Virus record (IMG/VR): IMGVR_UViG_3300035192_000069
Reading direction: 5' to 3' (one strand)
Origin: a virus
DNA length: 52,079 bases
Made by a program: the position numbers and the translations under genes. The notes beneath the pieces are model-generated. The model saw only the letters and a list, made by a program, of their open reading frames with translations. It was not told where the DNA came from and did not search any database. Below are positions 1,803-50,948 of this stretch, piece by piece; within the stretch, counting starts at the first letter, position 1, and the number at the start of each line of letters is the position of its first letter.

Positions 1803-2069
1803 TCAAAATGGCCGCATAATCCATGCCGAAAGTATGTCCATGTGTTTTCTAACCGCCTTTTTCACACTCTTCAAATCCGGATACAGATACCAATCAAATG
1901 TAATTCTATGAGCTGAGTATGATTCAGGATTTCTGTCCAGGAACTGTATCTTGTACCTCAAATTGTCATTACATTTTTCAGTATGCTTGCAAATTATCTT
2001 AACTTTTCTAGGCACAGAAATTCCGTCAAAATAATAGACCTCTTCATCTGGTTTAAATTTTTTCATCAC
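1803..2069 (-). CDS. Hypothetical protein
   Basis: 88-aa ORF; its start overlaps the stop of the upstream methyltransferase gene. Confidence 0.5.
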   Translation of the reverse strand: MMKKFKPDEEVYYFDGISVPRKVKIICKHTEKCNDNLRYKIQFLDRNPESYSAHRITFDWYLYPDLKSVKKAVRKHMDILSAWIMRPF

Positions 2070-2734
2070 GTTCTAACTGCCTTTCTATCCAGGTCCTCGA
2101 CGACACTGTCGCTCCGGTACCGGGACGACGCAAACTCCCTCCAAGCCGCCGACACAATCCCGGTGCCAGGAAACAAATCGTCAAACATGTCGCCCGGCGC
2201 TGCAGCAAGCGCTTCGAACAAGAACGCACAGAATGCAATCGGCTTTCGACCCATGAGCGTCCCACCGAACCTGGCCGGCTGAGCTGAGATCCAGTCACGG
2301 ACGCCGGCGTGAACGACACGGGCCTGTTTCACAATCAGTGGCTCCCATGTCGAGTGTAGACCTCGAGTCCTCGGCGACGCTCCGATAGGCTTCACCCATG
2401 CGCATACCCTGACTTCCGGTGGGCAAAGGGGGAGGATGTCGCGCAAGGCCTTCGACGACGTTGACAGCGCCCGCCCATCGTATGTCGCCAGCTGCTCGAG
2501 CAGACGCTCATGATCTACCTCTCTCTGGTAGGTGTCTTCATGCTGGTGGTACTTTTTCGCCATCCCGGGGTAGGGTGGGTCGGCGTAGGCCAGTCGCTTC
2601 GGTTCCCTGGTCGTCGCCTCGAGGTGCGACAGACGCCGAAACCGATAGGCGGCTTGCCTGCACCGTTTGGAACAATAGGTTTGGTGCTTCTCGACGGGCA
2701 CCACCCCACACCATTTGCAGAGCTGTTGAGTCAT
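2066..2734 (-). CDS. DNA methyltransferase (beta-class amino-MTase) with an N-terminal Cys4 zinc ribbon
   Basis: CKWCG...CSKRC, then AYADPPYPG (motif IV) ahead of DLFPGTGIV (motif I-like). ATG 2734 overlaps the upstream stop (TGATG). Confidence 0.7.
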   Translation of the reverse strand: MTQQLCKWCGVVPVEKHQTYCSKRCRQAAYRFRRLSHLEATTREPKRLAYADPPYPGMAKKYHQHEDTYQREVDHERLLEQLATYDGRALSTSSKALRDILPLCPPEVRVCAWVKPIGASPRTRGLHSTWEPLIVKQARVVHAGVRDWISAQPARFGGTLMGRKPIAFCAFLFEALAAAPGDMFDDLFPGTGIVSAAWREFASSRYRSDSVVEDLDRKAVRT

Positions 2735-2982
2735 CAATTGGTGCCTCGACCGGTCGTTTTGAAATCGGTGACTTCCCACAATTCATCGAATTGCTTCAGG
2801 GTAACAGGGAGAAGATAGTCAATAACATTGACAATCGGGATGCCGCGATCAAAGCCGGTGACTATCCCCTCCATGCCAAATTGGATGTCTGCTATCCTTT
2901 TCCCTCTCCCGTCGATAATCAATATGACCGGAAAGCTACTTTTCGCCCGAACGTGCATGCCGAGCTCAATCTTCGTCGTCAT
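2734..2982 (-). CDS. Hypothetical protein
   Basis: Start MTTKIELG is preceded by GGAGGA. The track ORF extends upstream without an SD. Confidence 0.5.
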   Translation of the reverse strand: MTTKIELGMHVRAKSSFPVILIIDGRGKRIADIQFGMEGIVTGFDRGIPIVNVIDYLLPVTLKQFDELWEVTDFKTTGRGTN

Positions 2983-3606: not shown

Positions 3607-4251
3607 TCACACCGCAAGCACTCCTTGCGCAAGACGCTGAATAGCTGACCGACAATACGTCTCTTCTATTTCAACACCAACAGCTCGATACCCAAGCGCC
3701 TTTGCCGCAACCAGTGTTGTCCCAGATCCAGCAAACGGATCCAGGATTACACCGCGATGGCAACAGGATATTAAGTCCATCATTAGAGACACGGGCTTTT
3801 CCATTGGATGCCATCTTGATTTTCTTCGTCCTACGCAGCCCGCTACAGCCAAATGTCGCAACACGGATCCTCTTCGCCTTCCAAAGAAACCTCTTCCGAT
3901 TACATATATCTCCTCATGGTTTGGCTTCCATGGCAACGAAAGATCCCCCATGCCAACATGTTCACCTTTCTCCCATATAAGTAAGTGTCGAGTATTTATC
4001 GGGCGAGCAATTTTCCATGTTCCAAACACAAGAGCAGGGCGTTCACCCCATGCGTCAAGCAGTGTGTCACGGGCAACGGTATCCAGATCGCCTTTTATTG
4101 AGCAGTCGCCTAACCGTCCTTTCATTCCACTGCTAAACCCTATCCCATATGGCGGGTCGGTAACCAGTACGTCAGCGCATATCGAGTCAAACACATCCCG
4201 GAAATCGCAATTAAAAATTGTAATCCCTGATTCCTCGTAATAGGGTTTCAC
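3607..4251 (-). CDS. DNA methyltransferase (N6-adenine/N4-cytosine, beta class)
   Basis: LVTDPPYG (motif IV) lies upstream of ILDPFAGSGTT (motif I). GTG 4251 overlaps the upstream TGA (GTGA). Confidence 0.85.
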   Translation of the reverse strand: MKPYYEESGITIFNCDFRDVFDSICADVLVTDPPYGIGFSSGMKGRLGDCSIKGDLDTVARDTLLDAWGERPALVFGTWKIARPINTRHLLIWEKGEHVGMGDLSLPWKPNHEEIYVIGRGFFGRRRGSVLRHLAVAGCVGRRKSRWHPMEKPVSLMMDLISCCHRGVILDPFAGSGTTLVAAKALGYRAVGVEIEETYCRSAIQRLAQGVLAV

Positions 4252-4433
4252 TCCTCTATCTCCTCTCCGTGCGCATTCCAGCACGCTTTAACATTGCCGA
4301 CATACCAATGACAGCATGATGCATCCGTATTGAACGGTCTGGTTTCGCATCCTGCAAAATCGTTGAGAGTGCAAAGGCAACTGTGCCAACTGTACCAAGC
4401 GCATTGTCCACAGTATATTGAGAGGCGACTCAT
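4248..4433 (-). CDS. Small Cys-rich protein (8 Cys in 61 aa)
   Basis: ORF preceded by a GAGGA SD; coupled at both ends. Confidence 0.5.
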   Translation of the reverse strand: MSRLSIYCGQCAWYSWHSCLCTLNDFAGCETRPFNTDASCCHWYVGNVKACWNAHGEEIEE

Positions 4434-7517: not shown

Positions 7518-7723
7518 TAGTCCATCCCTCCTTGTTTCCGAATGTAGTCTCTAGATATCCATCCGAGGCGCTCCATTGCCTTCCGGGCAGTATCGGCTTT
7601 ATCCGGGTCGATTCTTGGCTGTTCTGATGATGCCTTAGAGAATCGTCTCTCAAGCATCCTTATTTTCGCTTCCAATAGGATAATATATTCCCTGTCGGTC
7701 AGGAGTCCCTGTTCAATAGTCAT
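7517..7723 (-). CDS. Hypothetical protein
   Basis: Start MTIEQGLL overlaps the dnaB stop (TGATG). Confidence 0.45.
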   Translation of the reverse strand: MTIEQGLLTDREYIILLEAKIRMLERRFSKASSEQPRIDPDKADTARKAMERLGWISRDYIRKQGGMD

Positions 7724-9024
7724 CAGTATTCCGCCTCCCCAGCCCGCTGGTAATCGCCAACGTGCATATGCTGTAGGTCGCAATGCAGACACAGTTTGCC
7801 AGTCCGCCCATGCGAATTCTTCGCGATGATAAAAGTCAGCTCGTTCTCATCCTTCGATTCGTCGTAATACCTCGGACGATGAAGCAACCAGACCACGCGC
7901 GCGAGCTGTTCGAGCTCTCCGGTCTGTCGGAGATCGCCCAGCTCGGGAATTTTTGAAGACCGCTTTTCCGTCTCTCGGCTGAGTTGGTGTAGGCAAAGCA
8001 CTGGGATGTTCAACTGTTTCGGAATCTCGACAATCGTTCGAGCGGCCGCCGTTGTGGATTCATAGAGATCCTTGCCCTTGTCACGGAGATGCCCGAGGTG
8101 GTCGAGTACCAGTAGGTCAAGACCGTGCTCCTCAGCGTGCTTAAATGCGACATTTCGGACATCGGCCGATGTTATTGACGTGGTGTCGTCAATCCAGATT
8201 GGAAGACATCCCACGACATCACGAACATTGTGAAGTAGTGTTCGCTCTTCAAAAAACAACCGTTTGGCGACGATACGGTCGAGTGCGACATTCGCAAAAC
8301 GCGCAAATAACCGGTACAGAACGAAGCGTCGTGAATCCTCAGGACTGACAATCAGTACACGCTTGCCCGCCAACGCCGCGTTGGCAGCAATATTGAGGGC
8401 GAGGGTGCTTTTCCCCATTGACGGCCGTGAAGCCAATACGCTGAGCAACCCGGGCCACAACCCGCCAAATTCGGCGTCGATAGTGCCAATGCCGGTTTTA
8501 ATCAATCCGGCCGGTTCACCCTGCTCTTCGAGTTCCTGAAGTGTGCTGTCTATCAGGCTTGCGACTGAAATGGCGTTAGCGTTTTTGGTTTGCTGGTCGG
8601 CAACACCGGTCACCGCGGCCCGGGCCCGAGCGAGGAAATCAGGAGTGTCGATGGACTGCTTGCTCCCCTCCTCAACGATATTCATCGCAGCCTGCATCAT
8701 CACACGGCGGCGTCCTATCTCCCGAAGCTCGTTGAGATAGTGATCGAAGTTTGCGGTCGTGGGCAATTCATCAGCAAGATGGTTTAGCCCCTCCATACCA
8801 CCGACAAGGCGCTTCTCGTCGTCCCCAAGAGCCGAAAACAGTGTGACCGGGTCAACTGGCTTACCTTCCACCAAGAGAGACTGTGTCGTTCTGTAGATGG
8901 TCTGATGCGGTATGTGATAGAAATCATCGGCCTCCAGTTCTGCAAAGAACCGTCCGAGTCGGTTATCCACGATGACGGCACCGAGCACGGCCCTTTCGGT
9001 CTCTATGCTGCGTGGAAGCTGCAT
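7723..9024 (-). CDS. dnaB: Replicative DNA helicase, DnaB family
   Basis: The N-terminus LPRSIETERAVLGAVIVDN is typical of DnaB. The Walker A motif is SRPSMGKSTLALNIA. The start overlaps the upstream stop (TAATG). Confidence 0.9.
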   Translation of the reverse strand: MQLPRSIETERAVLGAVIVDNRLGRFFAELEADDFYHIPHQTIYRTTQSLLVEGKPVDPVTLFSALGDDEKRLVGGMEGLNHLADELPTTANFDHYLNELREIGRRRVMMQAAMNIVEEGSKQSIDTPDFLARARAAVTGVADQQTKNANAISVASLIDSTLQELEEQGEPAGLIKTGIGTIDAEFGGLWPGLLSVLASRPSMGKSTLALNIAANAALAGKRVLIVSPEDSRRFVLYRLFARFANVALDRIVAKRLFFEERTLLHNVRDVVGCLPIWIDDTTSITSADVRNVAFKHAEEHGLDLLVLDHLGHLRDKGKDLYESTTAAARTIVEIPKQLNIPVLCLHQLSRETEKRSSKIPELGDLRQTGELEQLARVVWLLHRPRYYDESKDENELTFIIAKNSHGRTGKLCLHCDLQHMHVGDYQRAGEAEY

Positions 9025-9773
9025 TAGGTGTCCATCCCGTATTTGACTGGAGCCAGTTTCAGTTTTGACTGTTCGGCCTGTTTCCGGATCGTGTTCTTCA
9101 GACAGTTCATCAACCACTGGTGCAGCTTGTTCCGGCCGTTGATGTCATACACTGGATCGTTGGGTGATTTGCTCGTTGAGATGTCTTCGAGCCATCGCAT
9201 CTGATCACCATCGAGCTGCACAAGGTAGATTTTCGCTTGCTGCACCCATGCGATGGCGTCCTGGGTTGAGCAATCGGGCCACGCGGTCAAAATGAATCTT
9301 GCGATATTTTGGTCTTCCAAGCTCGGAAGAAACTCCAATGCTTCATCGATTGGCTGTAGATCGACTTTCGATGTCTCCTCAACTTGATCCTTCGATGTAT
9401 TATTGTTTTTATATATATATTCTGTCTCTCCCTCTCCCTCTATCTCTGTCTCTGGATCAGCACATTGCTCCACTTTTGCTAGCAAGCTGTTATCATCATA
9501 AATAATCCAATGTTTTAGCTTCCGTATATGTCCTGCTAGCACTGTGCTATCAATTCGCAAGCGCCATGCTATCTCATCGAGTGACGGCAAATTTCCGACC
9601 TTCGCCTTATCCTCTGCTGCAAGCATCCAGAGAAGAACGAGTGTCTTCACGACGTCACCCTCAAGATCGTTGAACTCTTTGTCGTCCAGGAGCTTGCGAT
9701 GAAGTTTTATCCATGGCGGACATCTGTCCTTGTAATGTTGAAATTCGTGCCAGTTTTTAATTCTTAAAGTCAT
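9024..9773 (-). CDS. Replication initiator / replisome organiser (lambda-O / DnaD-like)
   Basis: The N-terminus is MTLRIKNWHEFQHYKDRCPPWIKLHRKLLDDKEF. It sits directly upstream of dnaB. Its acidic linker is encoded by an AT/polypyrimidine tract. Confidence 0.6.
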   Translation of the reverse strand: MTLRIKNWHEFQHYKDRCPPWIKLHRKLLDDKEFNDLEGDVVKTLVLLWMLAAEDKAKVGNLPSLDEIAWRLRIDSTVLAGHIRKLKHWIIYDDNSLLAKVEQCADPETEIEGEGETEYIYKNNNTSKDQVEETSKVDLQPIDEALEFLPSLEDQNIARFILTAWPDCSTQDAIAWVQQAKIYLVQLDGDQMRWLEDISTSKSPNDPVYDINGRNKLHQWLMNCLKNTIRKQAEQSKLKLAPVKYGMDT

Positions 9774-9825: not shown

Positions 9826-10044
9826 TTACGCCATCGAGGTATCACTCGGCTGTTCGGTTGCAGTTGGAAACGCACTCGAATCAATCCACTCTTCAATATC
9901 CGATTCTCGATATCGAACAGAACATCGAATGCCATCTCCGAACTTGAAGGCCTTCAGTTTTCCCTCTCTGGTCCATCTACGAATTGTATCGACATGAATT
10001 GATAATCTATCGGCCACTTCTTGTGCGGTGAGCAGTTTTGACAT
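9826..10044 (-). CDS. Excisionase / AlpA-MerR-type HTH protein
   Basis: LLTAQEVADRLSIHVDTIRRWTREGKLKAFKFG...YRESDIEEWI, with an AGGAGG SD, adjacent to attP. Confidence 0.65.
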   Translation of the reverse strand: MSKLLTAQEVADRLSIHVDTIRRWTREGKLKAFKFGDGIRCSVRYRESDIEEWIDSSAFPTATEQPSDTSMA

Positions 10045-10222
10045 ATCGGCATACCTCCTGCGCAATAGCGCAAATTAACTGCTCAAAATGTATGACTGGC
10101 GGGTTGGAAAATATCCTTTTGATTTCTGGGGCGAATTCAAAAGCAAAAAATTGGTGGCAGTATTGCTCCAAATACGTAAAACAAATGGCGGCAAAAAAGT
10201 GCACATACTGCGCATAAAATGT

Positions 10223-10302: not shown

Positions 10303-10347
10303 TTCCTAAACCGAGGGTCGCAGGTTCGAGTCCTGCTGGGCGCGCCA
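10303..10347 (+). other. attP core: 3' portion of a tRNA-Arg(CCU), from the anticodon loop to CCA
   Basis: The loop is TTCCTAA and the T-arm is GCAGG-TTCGAGT-CCTGC. The acceptor 3' strand is TGGGCGC-G-CCA. No matching 5' acceptor or D-arm exists upstream. Confidence 0.75.
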
Positions 10348-10402: not shown

Positions 10403-10607
10403 GGATGGTCCATGGCCTCAGAACGTCAATCTCGCTCCAAAACTACATATTTTCTGTCAGTCTTGATCGTTTTCTGAATATCTGGCAATTCCTGGAAATT
10501 TGCATTCTTTTCGAAACGATACATGCTTATCATCTGCGAAACAAATCGAAGACTTGGCGGGGAATACAGGTGGCACTGGTGCGCCAAATCAACAGGAAAG
10601 GTGCGAG

Positions 10608-11717
10608 ATGAGTAAGCATGTAAGACAGTCAAAACCCGCCAGGCATGGCAATCAATGGCAAATCAGATGGACCGATGAAACGGGACATAGGCGAAGCGAG
10701 ACGTGGAGCAACTACGAGGACGCCGAGCACGCCTTAGTGACTCACAAACTCCACGTGATGGAGATACGCCGTGGTCTCCGAGTAAGACCACCCAAGAGCC
10801 GTGGCTTTGAGGAACTGTGCCGGCAGTGGCTCGAGATACGCACAGTCAAAAAGCGCACTCCAAAGGACGACACATCAATTATCAGGGTGCATCTGCGGCC
10901 GACCTTCGGCCATTTGGATATCGACCAAATCACTGCTGAACGCATCGATATTTTTTCGGCGGCGCTTTCAGCGAAGCGTGCACCACAGACGGTGAGAAAC
11001 ATTCTAATTCTTCTGGGGGCCATGTTGAGACAGGCGGTAGAGTGGGGGTGGCTCTTGGGCGTTCCTAAGATTCATCTTCCACGAGTTCGACTATTTCCTG
11101 CTGACTGCAAATGGCTACGCACTATCGATGAGCGAGATCAATTCCTGCGCGCGGCGCAAAATCACGCATTGCAGGTTGTCTACCCTATGTACGCCACCGC
11201 TGTGCACACCGGAATGCGCGCCGGCGAGCTCGCGGGTTTACAGTGGCAAGATATAGACTTCGAGCGTCGCCTTATTACCGTTCAAAGGTCATATGGTGGC
11301 CCTACAAAAAGTGGTGATATCCGACGCATACCAATTGGTGACGGCCTACTTCCCATTCTGCGGGAGTGGCGGCTGGCCTGCGGCAACCGGCTGGCGTTTC
11401 CGAATACTGCCGGTCAGATGTGGGATCCGCGCGGGCGTATTTTCAAGACAGTATTCCAAAAAGTGCTTCAGCTCGGCGGATTCCCGCCGAAACATATCAC
11501 CTTCCATTCGTTGAGGCACACGTTCGCGAGCTATTTCTTGATGAATGGTGGCGACTTAGAAGGCCTACGACGGATTCTTGGTCACAAAGACTCGAAGACA
11601 ACCCAGCGGTATGCCCATTGGCGGCCCGATGCCTTTGACAAGTACTGGGGAATCATGGGGCCAACGAAGTGCCACGACGGCGAGGTGATCGAGATGCGCA
11701 AGAAGGAGGAGGCATGA
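10608..11717 (+). CDS. int: Tyrosine recombinase (phage integrase)
   Basis: The C-terminal motifs are HSLRHTFASYFL...LGHKDSKTTQRYAH. The start MSKHVRQ follows AGGAAAGG. The gene lies next to the tRNA-fragment attP. Confidence 0.92.
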   Translation: MSKHVRQSKPARHGNQWQIRWTDETGHRRSETWSNYEDAEHALVTHKLHVMEIRRGLRVRPPKSRGFEELCRQWLEIRTVKKRTPKDDTSIIRVHLRPTFGHLDIDQITAERIDIFSAALSAKRAPQTVRNILILLGAMLRQAVEWGWLLGVPKIHLPRVRLFPADCKWLRTIDERDQFLRAAQNHALQVVYPMYATAVHTGMRAGELAGLQWQDIDFERRLITVQRSYGGPTKSGDIRRIPIGDGLLPILREWRLACGNRLAFPNTAGQMWDPRGRIFKTVFQKVLQLGGFPPKHITFHSLRHTFASYFLMNGGDLEGLRRILGHKDSKTTQRYAHWRPDAFDKYWGIMGPTKCHDGEVIEMRKKEEA

Positions 11718-42343: not shown

Positions 42344-43030
42344 CTACCAGCTCTCTGTCCCGCCGAGGTCTCTTACTGCCTCGAACGTGATACCGCTGTT
42401 TTTGATGAGTTTGTCGAAGACGAGCGTATCAATTGCCGTGCTGTCATCGAGTTTCGAAAGTTTTGTCTTGTTCAAGTGACCACCTTTGATCACCCGGACA
42501 CTGAGATCGCCGCTTGCCGCGAACGTCAGCGAATGCGGCAGAACCGCTGTTGGCTCGTTCAGTCCGTTTGAGCCCGAGTCACTGTATGGTCCCATCTTCT
42601 TGGTGCTCGTGTTCCTGGCCAAAAGAGTTCCCTTTGGCCAAGTGGCGCTTTGGCCCGTTCCAGCAACGGCCGCATCCCATGTGAGCGTTGCGGTACTGGA
42701 GGCATCGATTGCGATGGAACTGCCAAGTCCCGTGGAGTCGGAGGTGATCTTCACATGTCCGGTGTCGACCTCTACAGAGCATCCGTCGAGCTGCGCATTG
42801 GCCTGTGCGGCAATAAGCGCGGCCGTGTTTGTCGTTCCAGCGAACGTGACCGTCTGGTTGGCGCCACCATCCACCGAGACAACAAGGGTCTTGGTGTCCT
42901 GATCCACTGTCTCGTTCGTTGCGGACGTGATACTCCCCGCTGTTCCTGTTAGGTCTGCTGTAACGAGCTCTGCTTCGTACTCGCATTTCCCCAGGATGAG
43001 ATCGTCTCTTGTTTCGTGAGTCGTAATCAT
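42344..43030 (-). CDS. Head decoration protein (gpD-like C-terminal part with an extra N-terminal/inserted domain)
   Basis: ATG overlaps the protease stop (ATGA). The C-terminus is WPKGTLLARNTSTKKMGPY...VIKGGHLNKTKL. Confidence 0.55.
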   Translation of the reverse strand: MITTHETRDDLILGKCEYEAELVTADLTGTAGSITSATNETVDQDTKTLVVSVDGGANQTVTFAGTTNTAALIAAQANAQLDGCSVEVDTGHVKITSDSTGLGSSIAIDASSTATLTWDAAVAGTGQSATWPKGTLLARNTSTKKMGPYSDSGSNGLNEPTAVLPHSLTFAASGDLSVRVIKGGHLNKTKLSKLDDSTAIDTLVFDKLIKNSGITFEAVRDLGGTESW

Positions 43031-44139
43031 TCCACCACCCATCCCTTGTGTTTGGCCAAAAAGGCTTGTCGGTCCTTCTCGTCCTGGCTGGCTGTCAATG
43101 CAGCGGCATCGCCAGCGGTGTTGATCTCGGGCGGGTTGTCGTCCTGGCGAGCCTGGATCATGTTGCGCTTCATAGCGGCTGACATGTGCTGCGCCTTCAC
43201 CATTTCGGTGATGCCATCTCCGTCCTTGATCGCCTTGTGAGCCGCCTCGACATCGCCGCTTCCTTCTGCGAGGATGAGGTGAGCACAGGCACGCTCGTGC
43301 TCCTCTTTGGAGCCCGCCTCTTTGCCCGCGTTGAAAACAGCGTCATACGTGGCCCGGTGCTCTTCCTTCAGTGTTTTCGGGTCCATCTTGTCTCCTATCT
43401 TTGCCGCCTTGGATTCGGCGGGCTGGTTGTTCATGATTCCGTCAATCATCTTCTTCTGGAGGGCGGTCCTGGCGGTCATTACGGCCCCTTGGCCGTAGTC
43501 TCGCTTGACTTTGTCGACAGTGGTCTTGCGGCCAGCTGCAATCATCTCTGCATACACCTCATAAAAGTCGTCGAGCTCCTCCTCGACAACCTTCTTCCCC
43601 TCTTCGGTGGTCACGTCCGGCCGCTTGTTCCTACTGTCCGAGTTGGTAATGTCGATGATTCTGTCGGACACGTACATCGCTGTTGCAATGCCGACACTTC
43701 CAACTGCCGAGACTTCGCTCTCGGCGATGATTTCATTGGTTTGTGACGCCAGCATGTAGGCCGCGGATGCGAGCGTGTCGCCGGCAATCGTCCTCGTCGG
43801 GACGCTTGCCGAAGCAATCGCCTTCATCGCGTCATACAGACCATCGACATACCCTCCAGGACTGTCGATTTCAAAATTAATTTGCTTGGCGCCCTTGTAT
43901 TGGGCCTCGGCTACGTCGGAAATGATCTCCGAGTAGACCGCGTAATCTTCTTCCCAATAGTCGAGCCAAGAGTTGCGCTTCGGATAGAGCGGCCCTTTTA
44001 TCTTAATGGTCGCAACCCCGTTCTTGACCTGCACAGGATCGCGATCTTTCGATTTTGCCTCCGGGAGGGGCTGCCCGACGACACTGGCGAACAGGTATGC
44101 AAGTCTCTCGACTTCGTCTTGGAGCATCAGTAGCTTCAT
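43027..44139 (-). CDS. S49 (SppA/ClpP-fold) prohead protease with a scaffold-like C-terminal half (lambda C/Nu3 type)
   Basis: The peptidase motifs are FEIDSPGGYVDG and TLASAAYMLASQ. The C-terminal ~150 aa are helical and charged. Confidence 0.8.
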   Translation of the reverse strand: MKLLMLQDEVERLAYLFASVVGQPLPEAKSKDRDPVQVKNGVATIKIKGPLYPKRNSWLDYWEEDYAVYSEIISDVAEAQYKGAKQINFEIDSPGGYVDGLYDAMKAIASASVPTRTIAGDTLASAAYMLASQTNEIIAESEVSAVGSVGIATAMYVSDRIIDITNSDSRNKRPDVTTEEGKKVVEEELDDFYEVYAEMIAAGRKTTVDKVKRDYGQGAVMTARTALQKKMIDGIMNNQPAESKAAKIGDKMDPKTLKEEHRATYDAVFNAGKEAGSKEEHERACAHLILAEGSGDVEAAHKAIKDGDGITEMVKAQHMSAAMKRNMIQARQDDNPPEINTAGDAAALTASQDEKDRQAFLAKHKGWVVE

Positions 44140-45794
44140 GCCGCGGCCTCCTCCTCGACCATATCCGTTGGATCAAAGACTCCCATACCGAGCGCTTTCA
44201 TCGCATCGGTGACGTTCTTCTCGCCAAACTCGCGCTGTGCCTCGAGGATGGGACGCATCGCCTTTACCTTCATGCGGTTTTCCTTCTCCAGTTTACGGAT
44301 CGTCTTGTCGAACTTGGAACCAGTGAGCGCCCTTGAGGCGTGGCTGTTTGTCTCCCATCCCTCAGAGACCATTGCCTTGTGAGCATTGACCTCTTTGAGA
44401 ATGTCGACTGATGGCTTGATGGAGCCAATCCAATCGATTGATAGCCAAGCCTGTTTGACGTCATATTGCATCGGGTCGGACAGCGCCTCGAGGAACCCGG
44501 GGGCCTCGATTTTTCCAAGCAGTAGCTCGGATATAAACCACTCCTCGATGAGATTCTGGCAGTGCTGAGAAGCAAACCGTGCCCGTTTCTCGTCGAGCAC
44601 CATAATGAATTCGCGCAGAGCCGCTTGAGATGCCGAGTAGTTGCTGTTGAAACTCAGTAGGAGAATCTCCGGTGGAATCTCCATTGCCCATGAGAGGCCA
44701 GCTACAATGGCCGACTCGAACGACGCGAAATTCACGTCCGTACCATGGACAGAATACGGGACTGGTTCTTCGCCCGGCTGCAACGAACCAAACCATACCC
44801 CTGGCAGGATCCTGCTGACCTCCACGGGCCTCGTTTCGCCCGTCGTGTCATCTGTGACGCTGTCCTTGCGCACGGCTCCGTTACCGATGTGAGGAATCAT
44901 CTTGGCTTCTTGTGCCCGCTTGATGAATCCAATGATCATAGCATTGATCGATGATTTGAGTTGAGCGCTGTCCCTATTTTTCTGGATCTCATTGAGCGGC
45001 TGGATCGCCATGCCAAGCCCGGGCATCCCACGCACGTCGTCCTCGCGCTTGTTCGGACCGTAGACAAGCCAAGCGGTGTGGCGACCCGACCTCGGCCCGT
45101 GCGCAGGCACGTAGACGTAACTGTCGTTGAGAATGTGATCGGTTCCCTGATAGACCCAGAACCCGAGGTGCTTGCCGTTCTTGTCGAGCTTTACACCGTC
45201 GACAATATTTTCGTCCATCGCATGCTCGGGTGGGGTCTGCACACGGTTGCCGGAGACAATCTGAATCTGAGGGAGTCCCGTTGGTTTGTGCTGTCGATTG
45301 ATGACCAGGCAGTCCCCATCGATAAATGCCTCTTGGTAGATTTGGGCTTGTTGCTCTCCATCGATTCGGTATCCCTTGCAATCGATAATGTCTTTCGCCT
45401 TGCCGTAGAGCCGGTAGCGATTCTCCATTTTGTTGGCCCAGTCGACGAGGGAATCCTTTGGCGCGCCGATGACAGATTCTTCTGGCGTAAACTCCGGCTC
45501 CAATCCTTTGTGGATCACATTGGTAACGAGGCGATTTACAATTCCGATAGCATAGGTGTTCGTCCGGAATAGGGCTCCACTTCGGGCTCGAAGTGTCCAG
45601 TAGTCGAGTGACGCGATCTCATCGATTTGGCCGGAAACACCTCCCCAGAAATTCGCCCCATCGTACGTGCCTGTCGGTGGAGAAATGAATTGAGATTGGG
45701 CTTGAATCGGAACCGGTTCGGGTTCTTCAGCTGCTGGCGAATCGGGCCAGATCCAGGGGAGCTCCTCTTCCTCGATGCGGCGGCCCCAGCTCAT
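44136..45794 (-). CDS. Portal protein, lambda family
   Basis: 552 aa. The start MSWGRRIEEE overlaps the gpW stop (ATGA). It sits between the gpW and protease genes. Confidence 0.85.
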   Translation of the reverse strand: MSWGRRIEEEELPWIWPDSPAAEEPEPVPIQAQSQFISPPTGTYDGANFWGGVSGQIDEIASLDYWTLRARSGALFRTNTYAIGIVNRLVTNVIHKGLEPEFTPEESVIGAPKDSLVDWANKMENRYRLYGKAKDIIDCKGYRIDGEQQAQIYQEAFIDGDCLVINRQHKPTGLPQIQIVSGNRVQTPPEHAMDENIVDGVKLDKNGKHLGFWVYQGTDHILNDSYVYVPAHGPRSGRHTAWLVYGPNKREDDVRGMPGLGMAIQPLNEIQKNRDSAQLKSSINAMIIGFIKRAQEAKMIPHIGNGAVRKDSVTDDTTGETRPVEVSRILPGVWFGSLQPGEEPVPYSVHGTDVNFASFESAIVAGLSWAMEIPPEILLLSFNSNYSASQAALREFIMVLDEKRARFASQHCQNLIEEWFISELLLGKIEAPGFLEALSDPMQYDVKQAWLSIDWIGSIKPSVDILKEVNAHKAMVSEGWETNSHASRALTGSKFDKTIRKLEKENRMKVKAMRPILEAQREFGEKNVTDAMKALGMGVFDPTDMVEEEAAA

Positions 45795-46054
45795 GCGGAC
45801 CTCACCAGGCTTGTCCCGCTGCCGTTGAGTCTGGTATCGAGCCAATCCAAGCGGAGATAGAGCTTGTCGAGCTCGACGTTTAGCCGCGATATATCCTTCT
45901 TCGTCACCGTCTGCCGGGTCTGGCCTGTATCAATCGTGTAGCTCTGGAGATTTCCAGTAGACAGCGCAAGAATAGCGTCCTCGATGGCCTCGATGGCCGT
46001 TTTGGTCTTATCGATCCGAGATTGGAGCCATGTTGCGGTTATTGCTGATGCCAT
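45791..46054 (-). CDS. Head-tail joining protein gpW-like
   Basis: 87 aa with the pattern AILALSTGNLQSYTIDTGQTRQTVTKKDISRLNVELDKL, as in lambda W. Confidence 0.65.
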   Translation of the reverse strand: MASAITATWLQSRIDKTKTAIEAIEDAILALSTGNLQSYTIDTGQTRQTVTKKDISRLNVELDKLYLRLDWLDTRLNGSGTSLVRSA

Positions 46055-46194
46055 GTCTCATAGCCCAAAATTGAGACAAAAATGTCTCTCTGAGACAAGT
46101 ATGTCTCATTAGTGTCTCACTGGTCAAGCGAGAATGTATAAAAATGTCTCACTTGTATAATTATATAATAAATACAGCTATTTAGATTGTCTCA
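46054..46194. promoter_or_regulatory. Iteron-like array: 8 copies of TGTCTC(A)/TGAGACA plus an AT-rich block with divergent TATAAT boxes
   Basis: Direct copies lie at 46054, 46083, 46102, 46113, 46145 and 46188. Inverted copies lie at 46072 and 46091. TATAAT lies at 46156-61 (+) and ATTATA at 46160-65 (TATAAT on the minus strand). Confidence 0.7.
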
Positions 46195-46226
46195 AAAAAA
46201 GATTTTGCCTGATTCACTTTTTTGCT

Positions 46227-46246
46227 GGACACATCCGGATGTGTCC
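46227..46246. promoter_or_regulatory. Perfect 20-bp palindrome (operator candidate) upstream of the island
   Basis: GGACACATCCGGATGTGTCC, followed by TATAGT at 46249-54. Confidence 0.6.
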
Positions 46247-46301
46247 GCTATAGTAGGTACAGATGGTCGCAATGAAGCGACCATGAGCAAAGGAGAGACA
46301 G

Positions 46302-46469
46302 ATGACAAACTTAACAGGACACGAAGCCATCGAATTCAAGCGAGCAAACCCAGAAGCCAAGCTCAGCAAATACGCCGATCCTACTGAGGACGCGCGAGAG
46401 GACATCTCGGTAGAGGATGCTGAGGAAATCGCCAGCGAAGACCCCAGTCTTATCTACGTTGCAGACTGA
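46302..46469 (+). CDS. Island gene 1: 55-aa acidic protein (absent from the ORF track)
   Basis: MTNLTGHEAIEFKRANPEAKLSKYADPTEDAREDISVEDAEEIASEDPSLIYVAD, with an AAAGGAGAG SD. Confidence 0.55.
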   Translation: MTNLTGHEAIEFKRANPEAKLSKYADPTEDAREDISVEDAEEIASEDPSLIYVAD

Positions 46470-46512
46470 ACCGACCCCCACCCTGTCCCAGACATCTCGG
46501 GGGTGGGAGTGG
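46467..46512 (+). repeat. Intergenic hairpin element, copy A
   Basis: TGAACCGACCCCCACCCTG, 16 variable nt, then GGTGGGAGTGG. Confidence 0.8.
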
Positions 46513-46542
46513 CGACTGATTCGACCAAAAAAGGAGAGCAAA

Positions 46543-46788
46543 GTGAAAATGCATTACAAAGAAGTATGTGGTATCGATCCGAAATACCCCGAATGGGGAT
46601 ACAACATAGAAGGAAGACTCTTTCTCTTTGAGAAAGAGTCGAGAACATGGAAATTGTTCTCCTATACGGGAGGGTGGCGGGAGTGTTCGGAGCCAGACTG
46701 TACGCTGCTTCCTATTGCTCCACAAGAAGCAATCGATTTTCAGAGGCGCCGACCGGCGCCTAGATTCAGATTTAAATGTGATCGCTGA
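46543..46788 (+). CDS. Island gene 2: hypothetical protein
   Basis: GTG start 6 nt after AAGGAGAG; 81 aa. Confidence 0.5.
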   Translation: MKMHYKEVCGIDPKYPEWGYNIEGRLFLFEKESRTWKLFSYTGGWRECSEPDCTLLPIAPQEAIDFQRRRPAPRFRFKCDR

Positions 46789-46831
46789 ACCGACCCCCAC
46801 CCTGCCCGCCACTATGTGACGGTGGGAGTGG
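46786..46831 (+). repeat. Intergenic hairpin element, copy B
   Basis: Same 19-nt and 11-nt arms as copy A, with a different 16-nt centre. Confidence 0.8.
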
Positions 46832-46862
46832 AGGCCGATTCGGCCAAGACAAGGAGTATAAG

Positions 46863-47258
46863 ATGAATACGAAAAAAACATGGACAAAGAGCGAACTATG
46901 GGCAGCAATGTGTCAATACGAAGGAGAGTTCACGCTCGCACATGCAGAAAGCGTCCTGAAGTATTTTGACTGTGGCGAGTGCCCCGGAAGAGTCGGGGAT
47001 GAGTGTGACACTTGTCCCATAAAGAAGGCGGAGACTGTTAGGGGTAATTATTTGTGGAAAATGGCTGCCGATACTCACCAATATTGCTACAAAACAGACG
47101 GAGAAAGCGGGATAATTCAGGCATCCTCGATTGAGGATGCTCGTGACAAAATGATTATCGAGGCCGGCCTTACGCCGGCAGCAATCAAGAATGGAGCATG
47201 GGGCTGGGTGGAGGATTGCGATGGCGTCCGAATCTACGTCGCCGAAGAAAACATATAG
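46863..47258 (+). CDS. Island gene 3: hypothetical protein with a CxxC..CxxC motif
   Basis: AAGGAG SD; CGECPGRVGDECDTCP. Confidence 0.55.
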   Translation: MNTKKTWTKSELWAAMCQYEGEFTLAHAESVLKYFDCGECPGRVGDECDTCPIKKAETVRGNYLWKMAADTHQYCYKTDGESGIIQASSIEDARDKMIIEAGLTPAAIKNGAWGWVEDCDGVRIYVAEENI

Positions 47259-47292
47259 TGGTCGATTATCGGCCAAGCAAAGGAGTGTAAAG

Positions 47293-47781
47293 ATGGGAGA
47301 ATTATTAGATCAAGTAATGGCCGGAGGGCCGACAGAGTTGGAATTAGATTCTAAGCAACAGCGTGTCGTGGATTGTCTGAAGGAGGACCCATCGGGTTGG
47401 GCTTGGCAATTGTCCAGAGAGCAAATATTAAATCCATTACGAGAGGCGGTGAAAGAAGAACTTCTTTCAGATTCCTCCTGTAAATTAAGCTGTGCATTCT
47501 TAACCTACGATATGTTGATTGAGTCGTGCGCCAGCGAAGACGACTCGGAGTCCTGGGCCCGTAAGTTGATTGCGTGGATGAGTCCGCATTTGACTCAGTT
47601 CCATTTCGGGCCAAAAGGTTGGCACGATGCATTTCGGAGTGCTATTGTCAAGGAGGCCAAGTGGTTGCGAGACCACGAAAAATACCAAAAAGCTGCTCGA
47701 GTTGACAGTCCAGATCTTCCTGTGTGGGAAAACAAGGCGTGCCTTGTACTGGCGGAGCTGTTGGAGGCGGAGACAGTATGA
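47293..47781 (+). CDS. Island gene 4: hypothetical protein
   Basis: AAGGAG SD; 162 aa. Confidence 0.55.
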   Translation: MGELLDQVMAGGPTELELDSKQQRVVDCLKEDPSGWAWQLSREQILNPLREAVKEELLSDSSCKLSCAFLTYDMLIESCASEDDSESWARKLIAWMSPHLTQFHFGPKGWHDAFRSAIVKEAKWLRDHEKYQKAARVDSPDLPVWENKACLVLAELLEAETV

Positions 47782-47851
47782 CAGACTACGTCCGAATGGA
47801 GAAGCGTCACAGAAATCACAGGTTGCCGTGGTCGCGGCCAAGGGGTGAGAG

Positions 47852-48130
47852 ATGAGCACCGACGCGGCCGTGACGGCCGCTCGCCTACTACTCGAAGCGA
47901 ACGTCCCGAGCGGCATCACCCAAGAGCGGATCGACCGGCTCGCCGAGGTGATAAAGGGACTCACCGAAGATGAGCTTTCACGGCTCAGAATCGAGACATG
48001 TGCCCACGGGGGAGGGGACCCGGAGCGATACGGGAAACGGAAGAAGCGCGCCGGGCGGGCTGTCAAGATAGGGACCGCTGGCGTACATCCTGGTGAGAAA
48101 GGCGTCCAGATTTGGGCGGTATGGGCTTAG
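47852..48130 (+). CDS. Island gene 5: hypothetical protein
   Basis: AAGGGGTGAGAG SD; 92 aa; its 3' end overlaps the terL 3' end by 4 bp (convergent). Confidence 0.5.
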   Translation: MSTDAAVTAARLLLEANVPSGITQERIDRLAEVIKGLTEDELSRLRIETCAHGGGDPERYGKRKKRAGRAVKIGTAGVHPGEKGVQIWAVWA

Positions 48131-50118
48131 GCTGCCTCCTTCCAGAACACCCCGCTCTTGCAGTACTGCCAGAACTGGTACCAGTCGATCCCTTCCATCT
48201 GGTGTTCTCTCACACAAATCCACCAGGCAAGAATCTCCACCGAGCAGTGCCCGTAAACCATGAGATCCCAAAGTTCGTTTTGAGCGCCATGGGGACGGTG
48301 CCAATAGTAGGTCACGTAGCCATTGGGCCATTCCTTCTTTCTTCTATATTCCTTGGTCAACTCTTTGAGTTCGTCGTCATCGGTATCAAGTGGCGCGTTG
48401 AAGGTATAGGATGGCTGGGATCCTTCGGACGGGTGCCAATCCCTGCGTAGCACGGGGGCAAGCCGGTCCTTGTAGTGGTCGACCAGGATTCTGTACCCTA
48501 TTGTCCCCGCCTGGGTTGTGAATTCGGCAAATTCCTTGATCGTCTGAGCTTTGGCAGGCCTCTCTCGCCCCATGATTGGGAACACCCAGAATTCCCACTG
48601 CTGACAAAATTCGACGACGATAGAGGTGTTCCAGCTCGAATCGATGAGTGTCATCGACAGGCGGTATTGTTTTCCATTATCCGCCGTCCATACCCCGTTG
48701 TCGATCATATCCTGAAGCCTGCCCCAAGCCGGTGATTTGATTTCCTCGCAGCCATTTTCCGAATCATCCTTGAATCGCTGGTAATCGATCAGCCAACATG
48801 TGAAACTGGCCGTCCATCCCCACACGGCAACGGCCAGATTGTCTTTGTGAACATCCACCGTGCAGGTTAAAAACAGAATCCCGGAGTCGCAGCACTTCTC
48901 GATTTCGCGGTTCGGTATCTGTCCTTTGAAGTAGAAACGGCGCCGGTGAGCCGAAACCGCTTCGAACCGGACTCTTCCGCCAAGGAGCTTAAACGGTACA
49001 CCGAAATGATTGTTGTAAACCGACTGCATCAGGTCGATGTCACGAACCTTGCCAGTCTTCGGGTCGATGGCAGAGACCCAGTCGTTTACAATCTCGTACC
49101 ACGGCCCGAGGCCGGCCGGTGACAGGAAGGACGGAACGTGATAGCTTCGGATATTCGGCTCTACCGGAGTGGCTGTTGGCTCCCAGGAGCAGTTGCCTTT
49201 GTTTATGAATTTCGGCTTGTCGTGTTCGAAGTGTTCGTGATCGCAGTTTTTGCAGTGGTACCGAACCGTATCGGCATCAACTTGACCCTCGGCGTTGTAT
49301 TCCCATTTGAAACCGTACTCCTTGCCGGTCTCCTTGTTGACGCCGTTCCATCTGAGGTGCTGGGGATAGCCACATTTGAGGCAGCGGCACTTGTAGACCC
49401 GCTGGTCGCCGCGTTTGAACTCCCTCTCAATCCGGCTTGTTCCCTCGATCAACGGGGTCGACCCCATCATGATTTTGCGGACTTCCCAAAAGGCTCGCGC
49501 TCGCTTTTTGAACAGCGCGATCTTATCGCCCCCTCCGGTGACCTTGCCGCCCCATGTCTCCGCGTCTATCTCGTCCATGAATATGTACTGCATGGAAAAC
49601 GAGCGGATCTTGCTGATATTATTCGCCCCGTAGGGAATCAGATAGCCGCCGCCCTTCCACTGTAGGTGGTTCTTGGTCTTTCCAGTCTTCCGTAAGTTGC
49701 CGATGTCTGCGGACTGGAAGATGTCCATGTCGGAGTACTGGAACATCGGGATGATGTTCTCCTCCATCCGCTCCCCCATCATTTCCTTGTCCATAGTGGC
49801 GAATAGGACCGGAAGTGTCCGCAGATGTCCGGCGACATAGAAGATCGGCGCCTCAATCCCGAGGGTGGTGTACGCCACTTGAACACCCTTCATAACCGAC
49901 ACCTCCCGGACGGGGGAGCGGATGTCCATGCATTCGAGTATCTCTATCCAATAGGGCGTGAGCGACATGTCGAGGGGGCCACCGAAGCGGGATATGGACG
50001 GGGGGATGTATCGGAATTGCTCGTTGAACTCCACCGGGGAGAGCTCGAGGAGCTCCTCGGTGAACGTTCCGACGTATTCGGATGCCCAGCCTGCTCCAAT
50101 CTGGTCAATCGCGAGCAT
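48127..50118 (-). CDS. terL: Terminase large subunit, lambda GpA family
   Basis: 663 aa. Motifs include VMKGVQVAYTT, FMDEIDA and the zinc-ribbon CRCLKCGYPQHLRW...YHCKNCDHEH, as in lambda A. ATG 50118 overlaps the terS stop. Confidence 0.9.
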   Translation of the reverse strand: MLAIDQIGAGWASEYVGTFTEELLELSPVEFNEQFRYIPPSISRFGGPLDMSLTPYWIEILECMDIRSPVREVSVMKGVQVAYTTLGIEAPIFYVAGHLRTLPVLFATMDKEMMGERMEENIIPMFQYSDMDIFQSADIGNLRKTGKTKNHLQWKGGGYLIPYGANNISKIRSFSMQYIFMDEIDAETWGGKVTGGGDKIALFKKRARAFWEVRKIMMGSTPLIEGTSRIEREFKRGDQRVYKCRCLKCGYPQHLRWNGVNKETGKEYGFKWEYNAEGQVDADTVRYHCKNCDHEHFEHDKPKFINKGNCSWEPTATPVEPNIRSYHVPSFLSPAGLGPWYEIVNDWVSAIDPKTGKVRDIDLMQSVYNNHFGVPFKLLGGRVRFEAVSAHRRRFYFKGQIPNREIEKCCDSGILFLTCTVDVHKDNLAVAVWGWTASFTCWLIDYQRFKDDSENGCEEIKSPAWGRLQDMIDNGVWTADNGKQYRLSMTLIDSSWNTSIVVEFCQQWEFWVFPIMGRERPAKAQTIKEFAEFTTQAGTIGYRILVDHYKDRLAPVLRRDWHPSEGSQPSYTFNAPLDTDDDELKELTKEYRRKKEWPNGYVTYYWHRPHGAQNELWDLMVYGHCSVEILAWWICVREHQMEGIDWYQFWQYCKSGVFWKEAA

Positions 50119-50711
50119 CACGCCTTGGGCACCTGCAGTGCCTTTTTCATCGCGGCCTTGGCCGGGCGGATAAATGCCGTGAGGCGCTTCCGGACCTCCT
50201 CTTCAATCTCTTCGACCGGGGCGCCGCCCTTTATCATGGGATGCACCTTGGCGGCGATGGTCTTGGATCCCTCGGAGAGCAGGCGGACGAACATCGTTTC
50301 AATGGGTACAAAGATACCATTCTTGACGACCTCCCGAGCGACGAGGCGGCGTTCAATTTGGCCGTTCTTGAGCTCGAGGTGGCGAGCTTGGGCGGCGAGC
50401 TTTTGGATCTCGAGAGCGGTCTTGCTCTTCATTCCGGCAGTGATCTCGTCATCGTCCTGGGCCTCGGGAAGGGGTTCCGGTTTCTTCTTTGGGGTGGACT
50501 TCCTGTTTTTCGGCTTCGATTGAGGCGAGGTGGAGGGGGTCGCCGGTTCTGACTTCCGATTTCGGAATTCCAGGTATGACTTGACTTCGGGGGTGCTCAC
50601 GTCGATCCCGCCGTCGGTCTCGGGAATCCTGCCGCGAGCGATGAGCTTCGACACAGTCGATTTGGAAATGCCCGCGAGCTTGGAGAAGTCGCCCTTTGAG
50701 ATAATGCTCAT
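50118..50711 (-). CDS. terS: Terminase small subunit, Nu1-like (N-terminal winged HTH)
   Basis: MSIISKGDFSKLAGISKSTVSKLIARGRIPE; directly upstream of terL. Confidence 0.7.
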   Translation of the reverse strand: MSIISKGDFSKLAGISKSTVSKLIARGRIPETDGGIDVSTPEVKSYLEFRNRKSEPATPSTSPQSKPKNRKSTPKKKPEPLPEAQDDDEITAGMKSKTALEIQKLAAQARHLELKNGQIERRLVAREVVKNGIFVPIETMFVRLLSEGSKTIAAKVHPMIKGGAPVEEIEEEVRKRLTAFIRPAKAAMKKALQVPKA

Positions 50712-50732: not shown

Positions 50733-50877
50733 GTTGACAGTGTCAATTTGTCAACTGCACATATGTCAATTTGTCAACCCTGTGTGTCAACTACACTTTT
50801 TGTCTTATTTACTAGACAAGAGAACGGCTCGGTTGACAGCTTTTTTTCAACAGTTGACACCCCTTAAAAATGTCAAC
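50733..50877. promoter_or_regulatory. Array of 9 TGTCAA(C/T)/GTTGACA sites upstream of terS (cosB-like candidate or late promoter region)
   Basis: The 15-bp unit TGTCAATTTGTCAAC occurs at 50741-55 and 50764-78. Single sites lie at 50733, 50785, 50832, 50853 and 50871. Confidence 0.6.
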
Positions 50878-50948
50878 TCGTTTTTTTTACTGGGATTGTG
50901 CGAGAGGCGGCATTCGCATATAAACACGGCACCCCCTCCCCCCATGTG

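Follow-up and report, generated by a model that had tools for sequence, protein, structure and literature searches.

The late operon of phage P22 contains a secondary regulatory region, immI, in which the Arc and Mnt operators are arranged around the Pant and Pmnt promoters, and in acr-aca operons a promoter repressed by Aca lies within structural gene clusters. Short repeated sites are also known from NarL promoters, where heptamers (TACYYMT) occur with an IHF site, and from PhoB boxes (CTGTCAT), which are 7-bp repeats with 4-bp spacers. Among replication origins, P4 (ori and crr octamers) and SPP1 (oriL and oriR) are examples in which a second cluster of repeats may be far removed from the initiator gene, and the lambda origin lies inside the O gene. 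Here we describe a cluster of eight copies of TGTCTC(A) in the IMG/VR virus record IMGVR_UViG_3300035192_000069, a stretch of 52,079 nucleotides that we call the window. The cluster occupies the non-coding gap between the start codon of a gpW-like gene and an accessory island, which is inserted between terL and gpW in inverted orientation relative to the late genes.

We propose that the cluster, which belongs to the divergent control region of the island, is a bank of operators for a DNA-binding protein specific to this locus, and we give this reading a probability of about 0.55. As in P22 immI, an accessory region lies within a morphogenetic or late block and would have its own promoters and small operators apart from the main immunity region. 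Unlike immI, with its one or two dyads, the locus has eight heptamers over 141 bp, no Arc/Mnt-like (ribbon-helix-helix) regulator is recognizable, and the island is inverted. The island also resembles acr-aca operons in being a short operon of small open reading frames (ORFs) without matches, with a strong promoter that carries an inverted repeat between -35 and -10 and with a conserved last gene, islE; unlike the acr-aca case, islE has neither a helix-turn-helix (HTH) nor a structural match. This likeness concerns only the promoter operator, GACAC-N8-GTGTC, and the heptamer array has no counterpart in acr promoters. With NarL and PhoB promoters the array shares many 7-bp sites in both orientations over 150-200 bp and an AT-rich bendable segment, and the sites at 46102 and 46113 are spaced like those of a Pho box (7+4, 11 bp). 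Its sequence, TGTCTCA, is different, and we do not claim membership in either group. The kind of element is known; this instance, the island platform and the islE family are new.

The heptamer array

A preliminary description of this DNA, made from the letters alone, had reported eight copies of TGTCTC, six direct and two inverted, within 141 bp, and our motif count agreed. The array, TGTCTCAtagcccaaaatTGAGACAaaaaTGTCTCtcTGAGACAagtaTGTCTCAttagTGTCTCActggtcaagcgagaatgtataaaaaTGTCTCActtgtataattatataataaatacagctatttagatTGTCTCA, spans 46054-46194 (141 bp), with TGTCTC at 46054, 46083, 46102, 46113, 46145 and 46188 on the plus strand and at 46073 and 46092 on the minus strand. Seven of the eight copies extend to the 7-mer TGTCTCA/TGAGACA, the exception being TGTCTCT at 46083. 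The 7-mer occurs eight times in the whole 52-kb window, seven times in the array and once at 11027 on the minus strand, and TGTCTC occurs 38 times in total, as against about 30 in shuffled sequences. The description had also held the clustering to be far above chance and had proposed a motif-clustering statistic as a check. We scored the densest 141-bp stretch in each of 300 first-order Markov simulations and found a maximum of four copies (once), three copies in 20 simulations, and two or fewer in the rest, compared with the eight observed, which upholds the claim. When all 6-, 7- and 8-mers of the window were examined, the sole comparable cluster was that of TGTCAA(C), nine copies at 50734-50880, and no further TGTCTCA cluster was found elsewhere in the window with one mismatch tolerated. 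The cluster is real and strongly conserved.

Both palindromes quoted in the preliminary description are present in the sequence, and they can be read as two adjoining 18-bp dyads of the form TGAGACA-N4-TGTCTC(A/T), at 46072-46089 and 46091-46108. Two adjacent dyads of the TGAGACA-N4-TGTCTCA type are typical of dimeric repressors. The AT-rich stretch with TATAAT on both strands was likewise found (plus strand at 46156 and 46164, minus strand at 46165-46160). The array had further been said to cover the gpW start codon and the island leader; it shares one base with the start codon, and its position is upstream of the island promoter (46226-46254), clear of the leader.

For a comparison site by site we aligned the window with four relatives (L004, L003, L084 and L088), and the five central sites were invariant across this set. 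The left edge of the conserved block is the plus-strand heptamer TGTCTCA at 46054-46060, whose first base lies within the gpW start codon (CAT, 46052-46054). Dyad A, TGAGACA-AAAA-TGTCTCT, extends over both strands at 46072-46089 and is made up of an inverted site (46072-46078) and a direct site (46083-46089); its left half reads CGAGACA in L084 and L088. Dyad C, TGAGACA-AGTA-TGTCTCA (46091-46108, both strands), is a perfect fit to the dyad form and is invariant in all five sequences, as is the direct repeat TGTCTCA at 46113-46119 (plus), which lies 11 bp past the 46102 site. The plus-strand heptamer at 46145-46151 is the least constrained site and has been mutated independently, to TGTATCA in L003 and to TGTCTAA in L088. 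The AT-rich core follows at 46152-46187 and contains -10-like hexamers in both directions, namely leftward TATAAT (46165-46160) and TATTAT (46170-46165) and rightward TATAAT (46156 and 46164). Positions 46157-46174 of the core are invariant in the five aligned sequences and, by eye, unchanged in a further relative, L100. The last plus-strand heptamer, at 46188-46194, precedes an A7 tract and overlaps, on the minus strand, the -35 hexamer of a predicted leftward promoter. The conserved non-coding block that holds the array is 144 bp long (46072-46215), and together with the site at 46054 it is the unit kept between recombination junctions.

Conservation of the block and its linkage to the island

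The comparison set consisted of viral and metagenomic contigs. No relatives of the region were found in the public phage genomes of INPHARED, and the array was not found in bacterial genomes, which gave just three distant portal relatives. The two close relatives in IMG/VR are 97-98% identical to the window in the portal, 93-100% in gpW and 72-98% in the island genes, but just 39% in terS and 49% in terL, and their repeats upstream of terS are GTTAAC, not TGTCAAC. L084, L088 and L100 were obtained through islE homologues and a DNA-pattern scan. The block at 46072-46215 is 94.5-97.9% identical to the window in L004, L003, L084, L088 and L100. By contrast, the flanks in L084 and L088 are only 58% (gpW side) and 70-72% (island-promoter side) identical. 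Elsewhere in L084 and L088 the capsid and protease are about 89-90% identical and the N-terminal half of the portal together with gpW about 66-68%. These two relatives have a different gpW N-terminus, yet TGTCTCA is retained 3 nt from its start codon, and L100 joins the window type of gpW to the L084 type of island promoter.

In L001-L005 the terminase genes have diverged, with terS 39% and terL 49% identical to those of the window as against 93-100% for portal and gpW and 98% for islE, and the junction falls at the terL/islE boundary. The comparison indicates that a terminase/cos-specificity module was swapped cleanly in these relatives. The TGTCTCA array is about 98% identical in L001-L005 despite the divergent terminase.

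We also compared the junction between terL and gpW across the family. Among about 80 family loci, terL is followed directly by gpW in the majority, with neither island nor array, and the block was found only together with islE-type islands. Islands occur at this junction in several lineages (L006, L008, L012, L014/15, L016, L052 and L090). The islE-type islands whose promoter region lies in the contig share three features: islE is the last gene, beside the 3' end of terL, the leader is homologous, and the promoter carries GACAC-N8-GTGTC. At the position of the array, the more diverged islands have other repeats. L008, with a homologous island leader, has four to five copies of GTCTACA/TGTAGA, including a 6-3-6 dyad, and L006 and L090 have the dyad AGTAGA-N5-TCTACT immediately upstream of a Big_5-domain gene. 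In these last two contigs an insertion (L006 4164-7030, L090 2746-5576) separates gpW from the control region of the island; it consists of the Big_5-domain gene (777-789 residues) and an ORF of 162 residues, both oriented like the late genes. Of the islands that lack islE, that of L014/15 has four TTTTTGC repeats immediately upstream of gpW, and those of L012 and L016 have AT-rich promoter-like DNA there, which fits the need for a restart of leftward transcription. The gene leftward of the repeat block varies: it is gpW of type 1, gpW of type 2, or another gene. The repeat block thus stays with the divergent control region of the island.

When the core was searched as a block in viral, genome and metagenome collections, only relatives were found, always at the same locus, and the metagenome scan for the three-heptamer core gave one added relative (L100) and five unrelated contigs (L095-L099), which share the heptamer alone. 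These five contigs (GC content 21-56%) contain dense TGTCTCA/TGAGACA arrays, some of them in 11-bp tandem units (TGTCTCATTTG), and have no genes in common with the window. We read them as independent use of the same 7-mer, with a common family of binding proteins as an alternative. A literature search for the heptamer matched only primers and unrelated eukaryotic entries. The repeats are unique to the locus, conserved far better than the flanking DNA, and linked to the island.

The proposed operator bank and its alternatives

The bank would consist of two adjoining 18-bp dyads and four single heptamers at the core of a divergent control region of about 250 bp. Two leftward promoters were predicted by a consensus scan, GAGACA-17-TATTAT (46193-46165) and TTGACC-18-CATACT (46127-46098), and both overlap heptamers. 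We suggest that a leftward promoter in the invariant AT-rich core of the block would restart transcription of gpW, the portal and the head genes past the island. Heptamers would cover the -35 of this promoter (46188) and its leader (46145 to 46054), so that an oligomer bound to them would either gate the promoter or be an obstacle to leftward transcription. From its position 70 to 200 bp upstream, this complex could also affect the rightward island promoter, which would in addition be under its own operator, GACAC-N8-GTGTC, probably for the islE product. Operators for both the island and the head-gene restart had been named in the preliminary description as an alternative to an origin, and this proposal is consistent with the dyads, the divergent non-coding position, the overlap with predicted promoters, the conservation of the block (94.5-98% against 58-72% in the flanks), the linkage to the island and the fact that diverged relatives have other repeats at this position. 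We infer that a protein binds the repeats, that it comes from the island or the host, and which promoter it would control. The mechanism we prefer, control of the leftward restart promoter with possible coupling to the island promoter, is suggested by position, dyad symmetry, conservation and linkage. If the bank does gate or restart the head genes, it would show how inverted islands are tolerated inside an essential late operon, and it would be a compact regulatory part, made of eight heptamers plus an AT core that does not vary, whose identity stays at 94.5-98% as the genes around it are exchanged.

Several observations weigh against this proposal. The promoter calls are consensus matches only, and the promoter rules of the host may differ. 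The spacers are conserved as much as the heptamers, so that part of the block's conservation could be due to its recent lateral exchange. A late transcript of the lambda type could read through the island with no need of a restart promoter. The helical register of the sites is not significant, five of them fitting about 10.7 bp per turn (p about 0.09, random placements equalling it in 9% of cases). Finally, no cognate DNA-binding protein was recognized among the candidates examined. The only recognized stand-alone HTH protein in the window, HTH_17 (9826-10065), is present in a genome that lacks the array. The islE product, the other obvious candidate, does not separate by sequence the TGTCTCA-type islands from the GTAGA-type ones, and comparison of its model with the PDB gave no fold match and no recognizable DNA-binding fold.

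The motif is unique to the locus and goes with the island, so that we expect the binder to be either an island product or a host factor. Among the island genes, islE alone is present in every array-bearing genome. In its AlphaFold model (pLDDT 78) three helices are combined with a three-stranded sheet and a conserved basic loop, and no Pfam domain was found in 30 members of the family, which is uncharacterised, comprises about 57 clusters at 50% identity and has proteins of about 90 residues. As possible binders the preliminary description had named the product of 9024-9773 and the HTH proteins. The first fares poorly, the presence of the array being uncoupled from the initiator in relatives. 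So do the HTH proteins: HTH_17 occurs without the array, and the N-terminal HTH of TerS has been replaced in close relatives with the array unchanged. An HTH_17 (Xis-like) binder was therefore rejected, being present in the array-less genome, with no TGTCTCA near attP. The HTH_17 protein has no similarity to TerS.

Among the alternatives to an operator bank, an element acting in RNA seems improbable to us. The repeats would form a leader switch, or a processing or stability element, for gpW translation, through mutually exclusive hairpins in the leftward transcript. The five alternating heptamers nearest gpW (46108 to 46054) would pair as 4:5 and 6:7, which would free the gpW start, or as 5:6 and 7:8, which would bury it and add a weak terminator-like hairpin with a U-run. 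The leftward leader is more stable than its shuffles (minimum free energy -41.2 kcal/mol, z = -3.5), the terminator-like hairpin at 46097-46083 is followed by TTTTTGTCTC, and the last heptamer adjoins the gpW start codon in two non-homologous gpW contexts. However, such stability is the automatic outcome of inverted repeats. The copies are all of one sequence, and three or four in the same orientation (46113, 46145, 46188) have no pairing partner. Substitutions in the relatives disrupt the predicted 9-bp stem with no compensation, the U-run is absent in L084 and L088, and no Rfam family matches the leader. The replacement of the whole motif in L008 suits recognition by a protein better.

We give little credence to a second alternative, in which the block would be a recombination hotspot at a module boundary, either a homology patch or a site-specific site, that exchanges islands, gpW types and terminase modules and has no regulatory role. 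Mosaic junctions flank the block on both sides, the equal conservation of spacers and repeats is what a homology patch would show, and island cassettes are shuffled among near-identical phages, with conserved hairpin linkers between them. Such a patch leaves unexplained why there are eight copies of one heptamer with dyads, and why other repeats stand at the same place in distant islands. No recombinase gene is linked to the block, and the sole integrase has its own attP about 36 kb away.

An origin of replication, the first proposal of the preliminary description, is very unlikely in our judgement. In this reading the initiator would bind the heptamers as iterons and the AT-rich block would serve as the unwinding element, perhaps in a second origin like SPP1 oriR or P4 crr. 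Superficially the layout is that of the iteron origins of lambda, P4 and SPP1, with short repeats in both orientations adjoining a 35-bp AT-rich stretch, and elsewhere in the window we found only a weak origin candidate at 9395-9573, which has two 19-mers containing TGCTAGCA, one degenerate copy and an AT run. The same core had been reported three times within the initiator gene. TGTCTC is indeed present there, at 9372, 9423 and 9447, but as TGTCTCC or TGTCTCT and not as the 7-mer. These copies are in-frame GAG-ACA (Glu-Thr) codons on the coding strand, in an acidic low-complexity linker, and in relatives this linker expands as (ET)n, extra tandem GAGACA giving ETETE.

Comparison of mosaic relatives also separated the array from the initiator, unlike in iteron origins. 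In 3300037297_000175 (L103) the array is present with seven of eight sites intact, and the initiator has a different N-terminal domain, matching that of the window only over residues 125-240, with a loader-like gene in place of DnaB. Conversely, the initiator (83%) and the HTH_17 protein of the window both recur in 3300035140_000027 (L013/L102), which has no island, and there was no TGTCTCA cluster within either of the parts of it examined. Two relatives of the L101-L104 set have a replaced initiator N-terminal domain, a C-terminal domain that is 97-98% identical, and a loader-like gene instead of DnaB. A collection-wide scan for the array core matched only the two close relatives. The repeats do not co-vary with a cognate initiator. 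The AT core, moreover, contains promoter hexamers. A plot of GC skew had been proposed as a further check; we found that the skew follows gene orientation, switching at about 10 kb, at about 23 kb and locally over the island, so it mirrors the coding strand and holds no independent origin signal. Because the supposed partner sites are codons, the array is uncoupled from the initiator and the skew tracks the genes, an initiator-coupled origin at 46.1 kb is not supported; we rejected it, and the operator and restart reading is the better one. These results show that repeats beside an AT-rich stretch are insufficient to call an origin, and that the array can be told apart from the modules for replication, packaging and integration by comparing mosaic relatives.

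It is extremely unlikely that the array is a packaging (cosB- or pac-like) or partition (centromere-like) site bound by a TerS-like or ParB/ParR-like protein: its layout of seven to nine heptamers over about 150 bp in both orientations does resemble lambda cosB (Nu1 R sites) and the nine-copy TGTCAAC array, but it lies 4.8 kb from the genome end and not upstream of terS, it stays unchanged where TerS and TerL are replaced (39% and 49%) and the TGTCAAC array has given way to GTTAAC, and no ParA or ParB was matched in about 50 ORFs scanned (Pfam or PHROGs) in a phage that has an integrase and attP. A MITE-like repeat (9-bp terminal inverted repeats TTGAGACAA and TTGTCTCAA, at 46071 and 46187) was rejected too, the window having a single copy and the relatives the same locus only.

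The TGTCAA(C)/GTTGACA array itself (50734-50880, both orientations) lies immediately upstream of terS. The corresponding arrays of relatives are of the types GTTAAC, TTAACAA and GGTTAAC, the GTTAAC type accompanying a divergent TerS. The ends of at least 18 related contigs fall 40-230 bp upstream of terS, and L084 and L088 both stop at the point homologous to about 50927 of the window. Because it lies upstream of terS, where contig ends cluster, the TGTCAAC array is probably a cosB-type terminase site, with cos adjoining near 50927.

Arm sites of attP were also rejected as an explanation of the heptamers, the integrase (10500-11717) and the core (10315-10347) lying elsewhere, with repeats of ATATTTTC there. 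At 10315-10347, between the HTH_17 gene and the integrase, is a tRNA-like T-arm and acceptor 3' end, GGGTCGCAGGTTCGAGTCCTGCTGGGCGCGCCA, that resembles tRNA-Arg. This is the probable attP core, and the ATATTTTC repeats near it may be arm-type sites. ARAGORN found no complete tRNA gene at attP.

The island and its surroundings

The island (46302-48130, plus strand) contains five ORFs, islA (46302-46469), islB (46549-46788), islC (46863-47258), islD (47293-47781) and islE (47852-48130), and their products had no matches in PHROGs, Pfam or PADLOC. Its promoter, TGGACA-17-TATAGT (46226-46254, plus), is near-consensus in the consensus scan. Between the two hexamers lies a perfect 20-bp palindrome, GGACACATCCGGATGTGTCC (46227-46246), which is distinct from the heptamer array. 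The leader (46263-46301, plus) has a small hairpin, ATGGTCGC/GCGACCAT, followed by the ribosome-binding site AAAGGAGA, and homologues of it were found in L008, L084, L088, L090 and L100. The sequence GACAC-N8-GTGTC between -35 and -10 is kept, with varying central bases, in every islE-type island whose promoter region lies in the contig; it falls within the promoter at 46226-46254 in the window, and at 1841-1858 in L008, 4407-4424 in L084, 4000-4017 in L006 and 5760-5777 in L090. Because islE accompanies this universal dyad, its product is likely an autorepressor that acts on the island promoter through it.

A conserved linker, about 70 nt long, recurs between the island genes, at 46470-46548 and 46788-46862 and as partial copies at 47259-47294 and 47823-47851. 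The linker combines the upstream stop codon with two hairpins, one long (ACCGACCCCCACCC...GGGTGGGAGTGG) and one small (GGCCGATTCGGCC), and with AAAAGGAG; the long hairpin has 18 consensus pairs, two of them with compensatory changes. Copies of the linker also occur in L001, L002, L008, L085, L089 and L100, and the cassettes between linkers vary among otherwise near-identical phages. The linkers may be points of recombination or RNA processing. Within islB (46616-46640) there is also a perfect inverted repeat with an 11-bp stem, GACTCTTTCTC ttt GAGAAAGAGTC, with a terminator-like score on the minus strand; late transcripts crossing the island in antisense could be terminated here.

More speculatively, and with considerable doubt, the block might be the hub of a self-contained, exchangeable platform for accessory genes in lambda-like phages, comprising the array, the autoregulated promoter, the hairpin-linked cassettes and islE in last place. 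The block, bound by islE or a host factor as a DNA-binding protein of a new kind, would then serve as exit promoter or insulator, so that the inverted island would have no polar effects. If true, accessory genes of phages, possibly with anti-defence roles, would here be arranged in an integron-like manner. The island is of interest in its own right for its shuffled cassettes, the conserved dyad operator at its promoter, and its one constant gene of an uncharacterised family.

The window comes from a temperate phage whose head module, on the minus strand, is of the lambda type. Profile matches identified a Nu1-like TerS (50118-50711), a gpA-type TerL (48127-50121), a lambda-family portal (44136-45797) and an S49 protease (43027-44139), all on the minus strand. 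The gpW-like head-tail adaptor (45791-46054, minus; phrog_118, E = 1.5e-5) is located between terL and the portal and is the first head gene leftward of the array. Further profile matches were a DnaB-like helicase (7723-9117), the replication protein that we call the initiator (9024-9773, minus), the Xis-like HTH_17 protein and the tyrosine integrase. A methyltransferase gene at 3607-4284 (minus) gave a clear match (phrog_67, E = 5e-43), and an ORF at 2066-2779 (minus) matched methyltransferases weakly.

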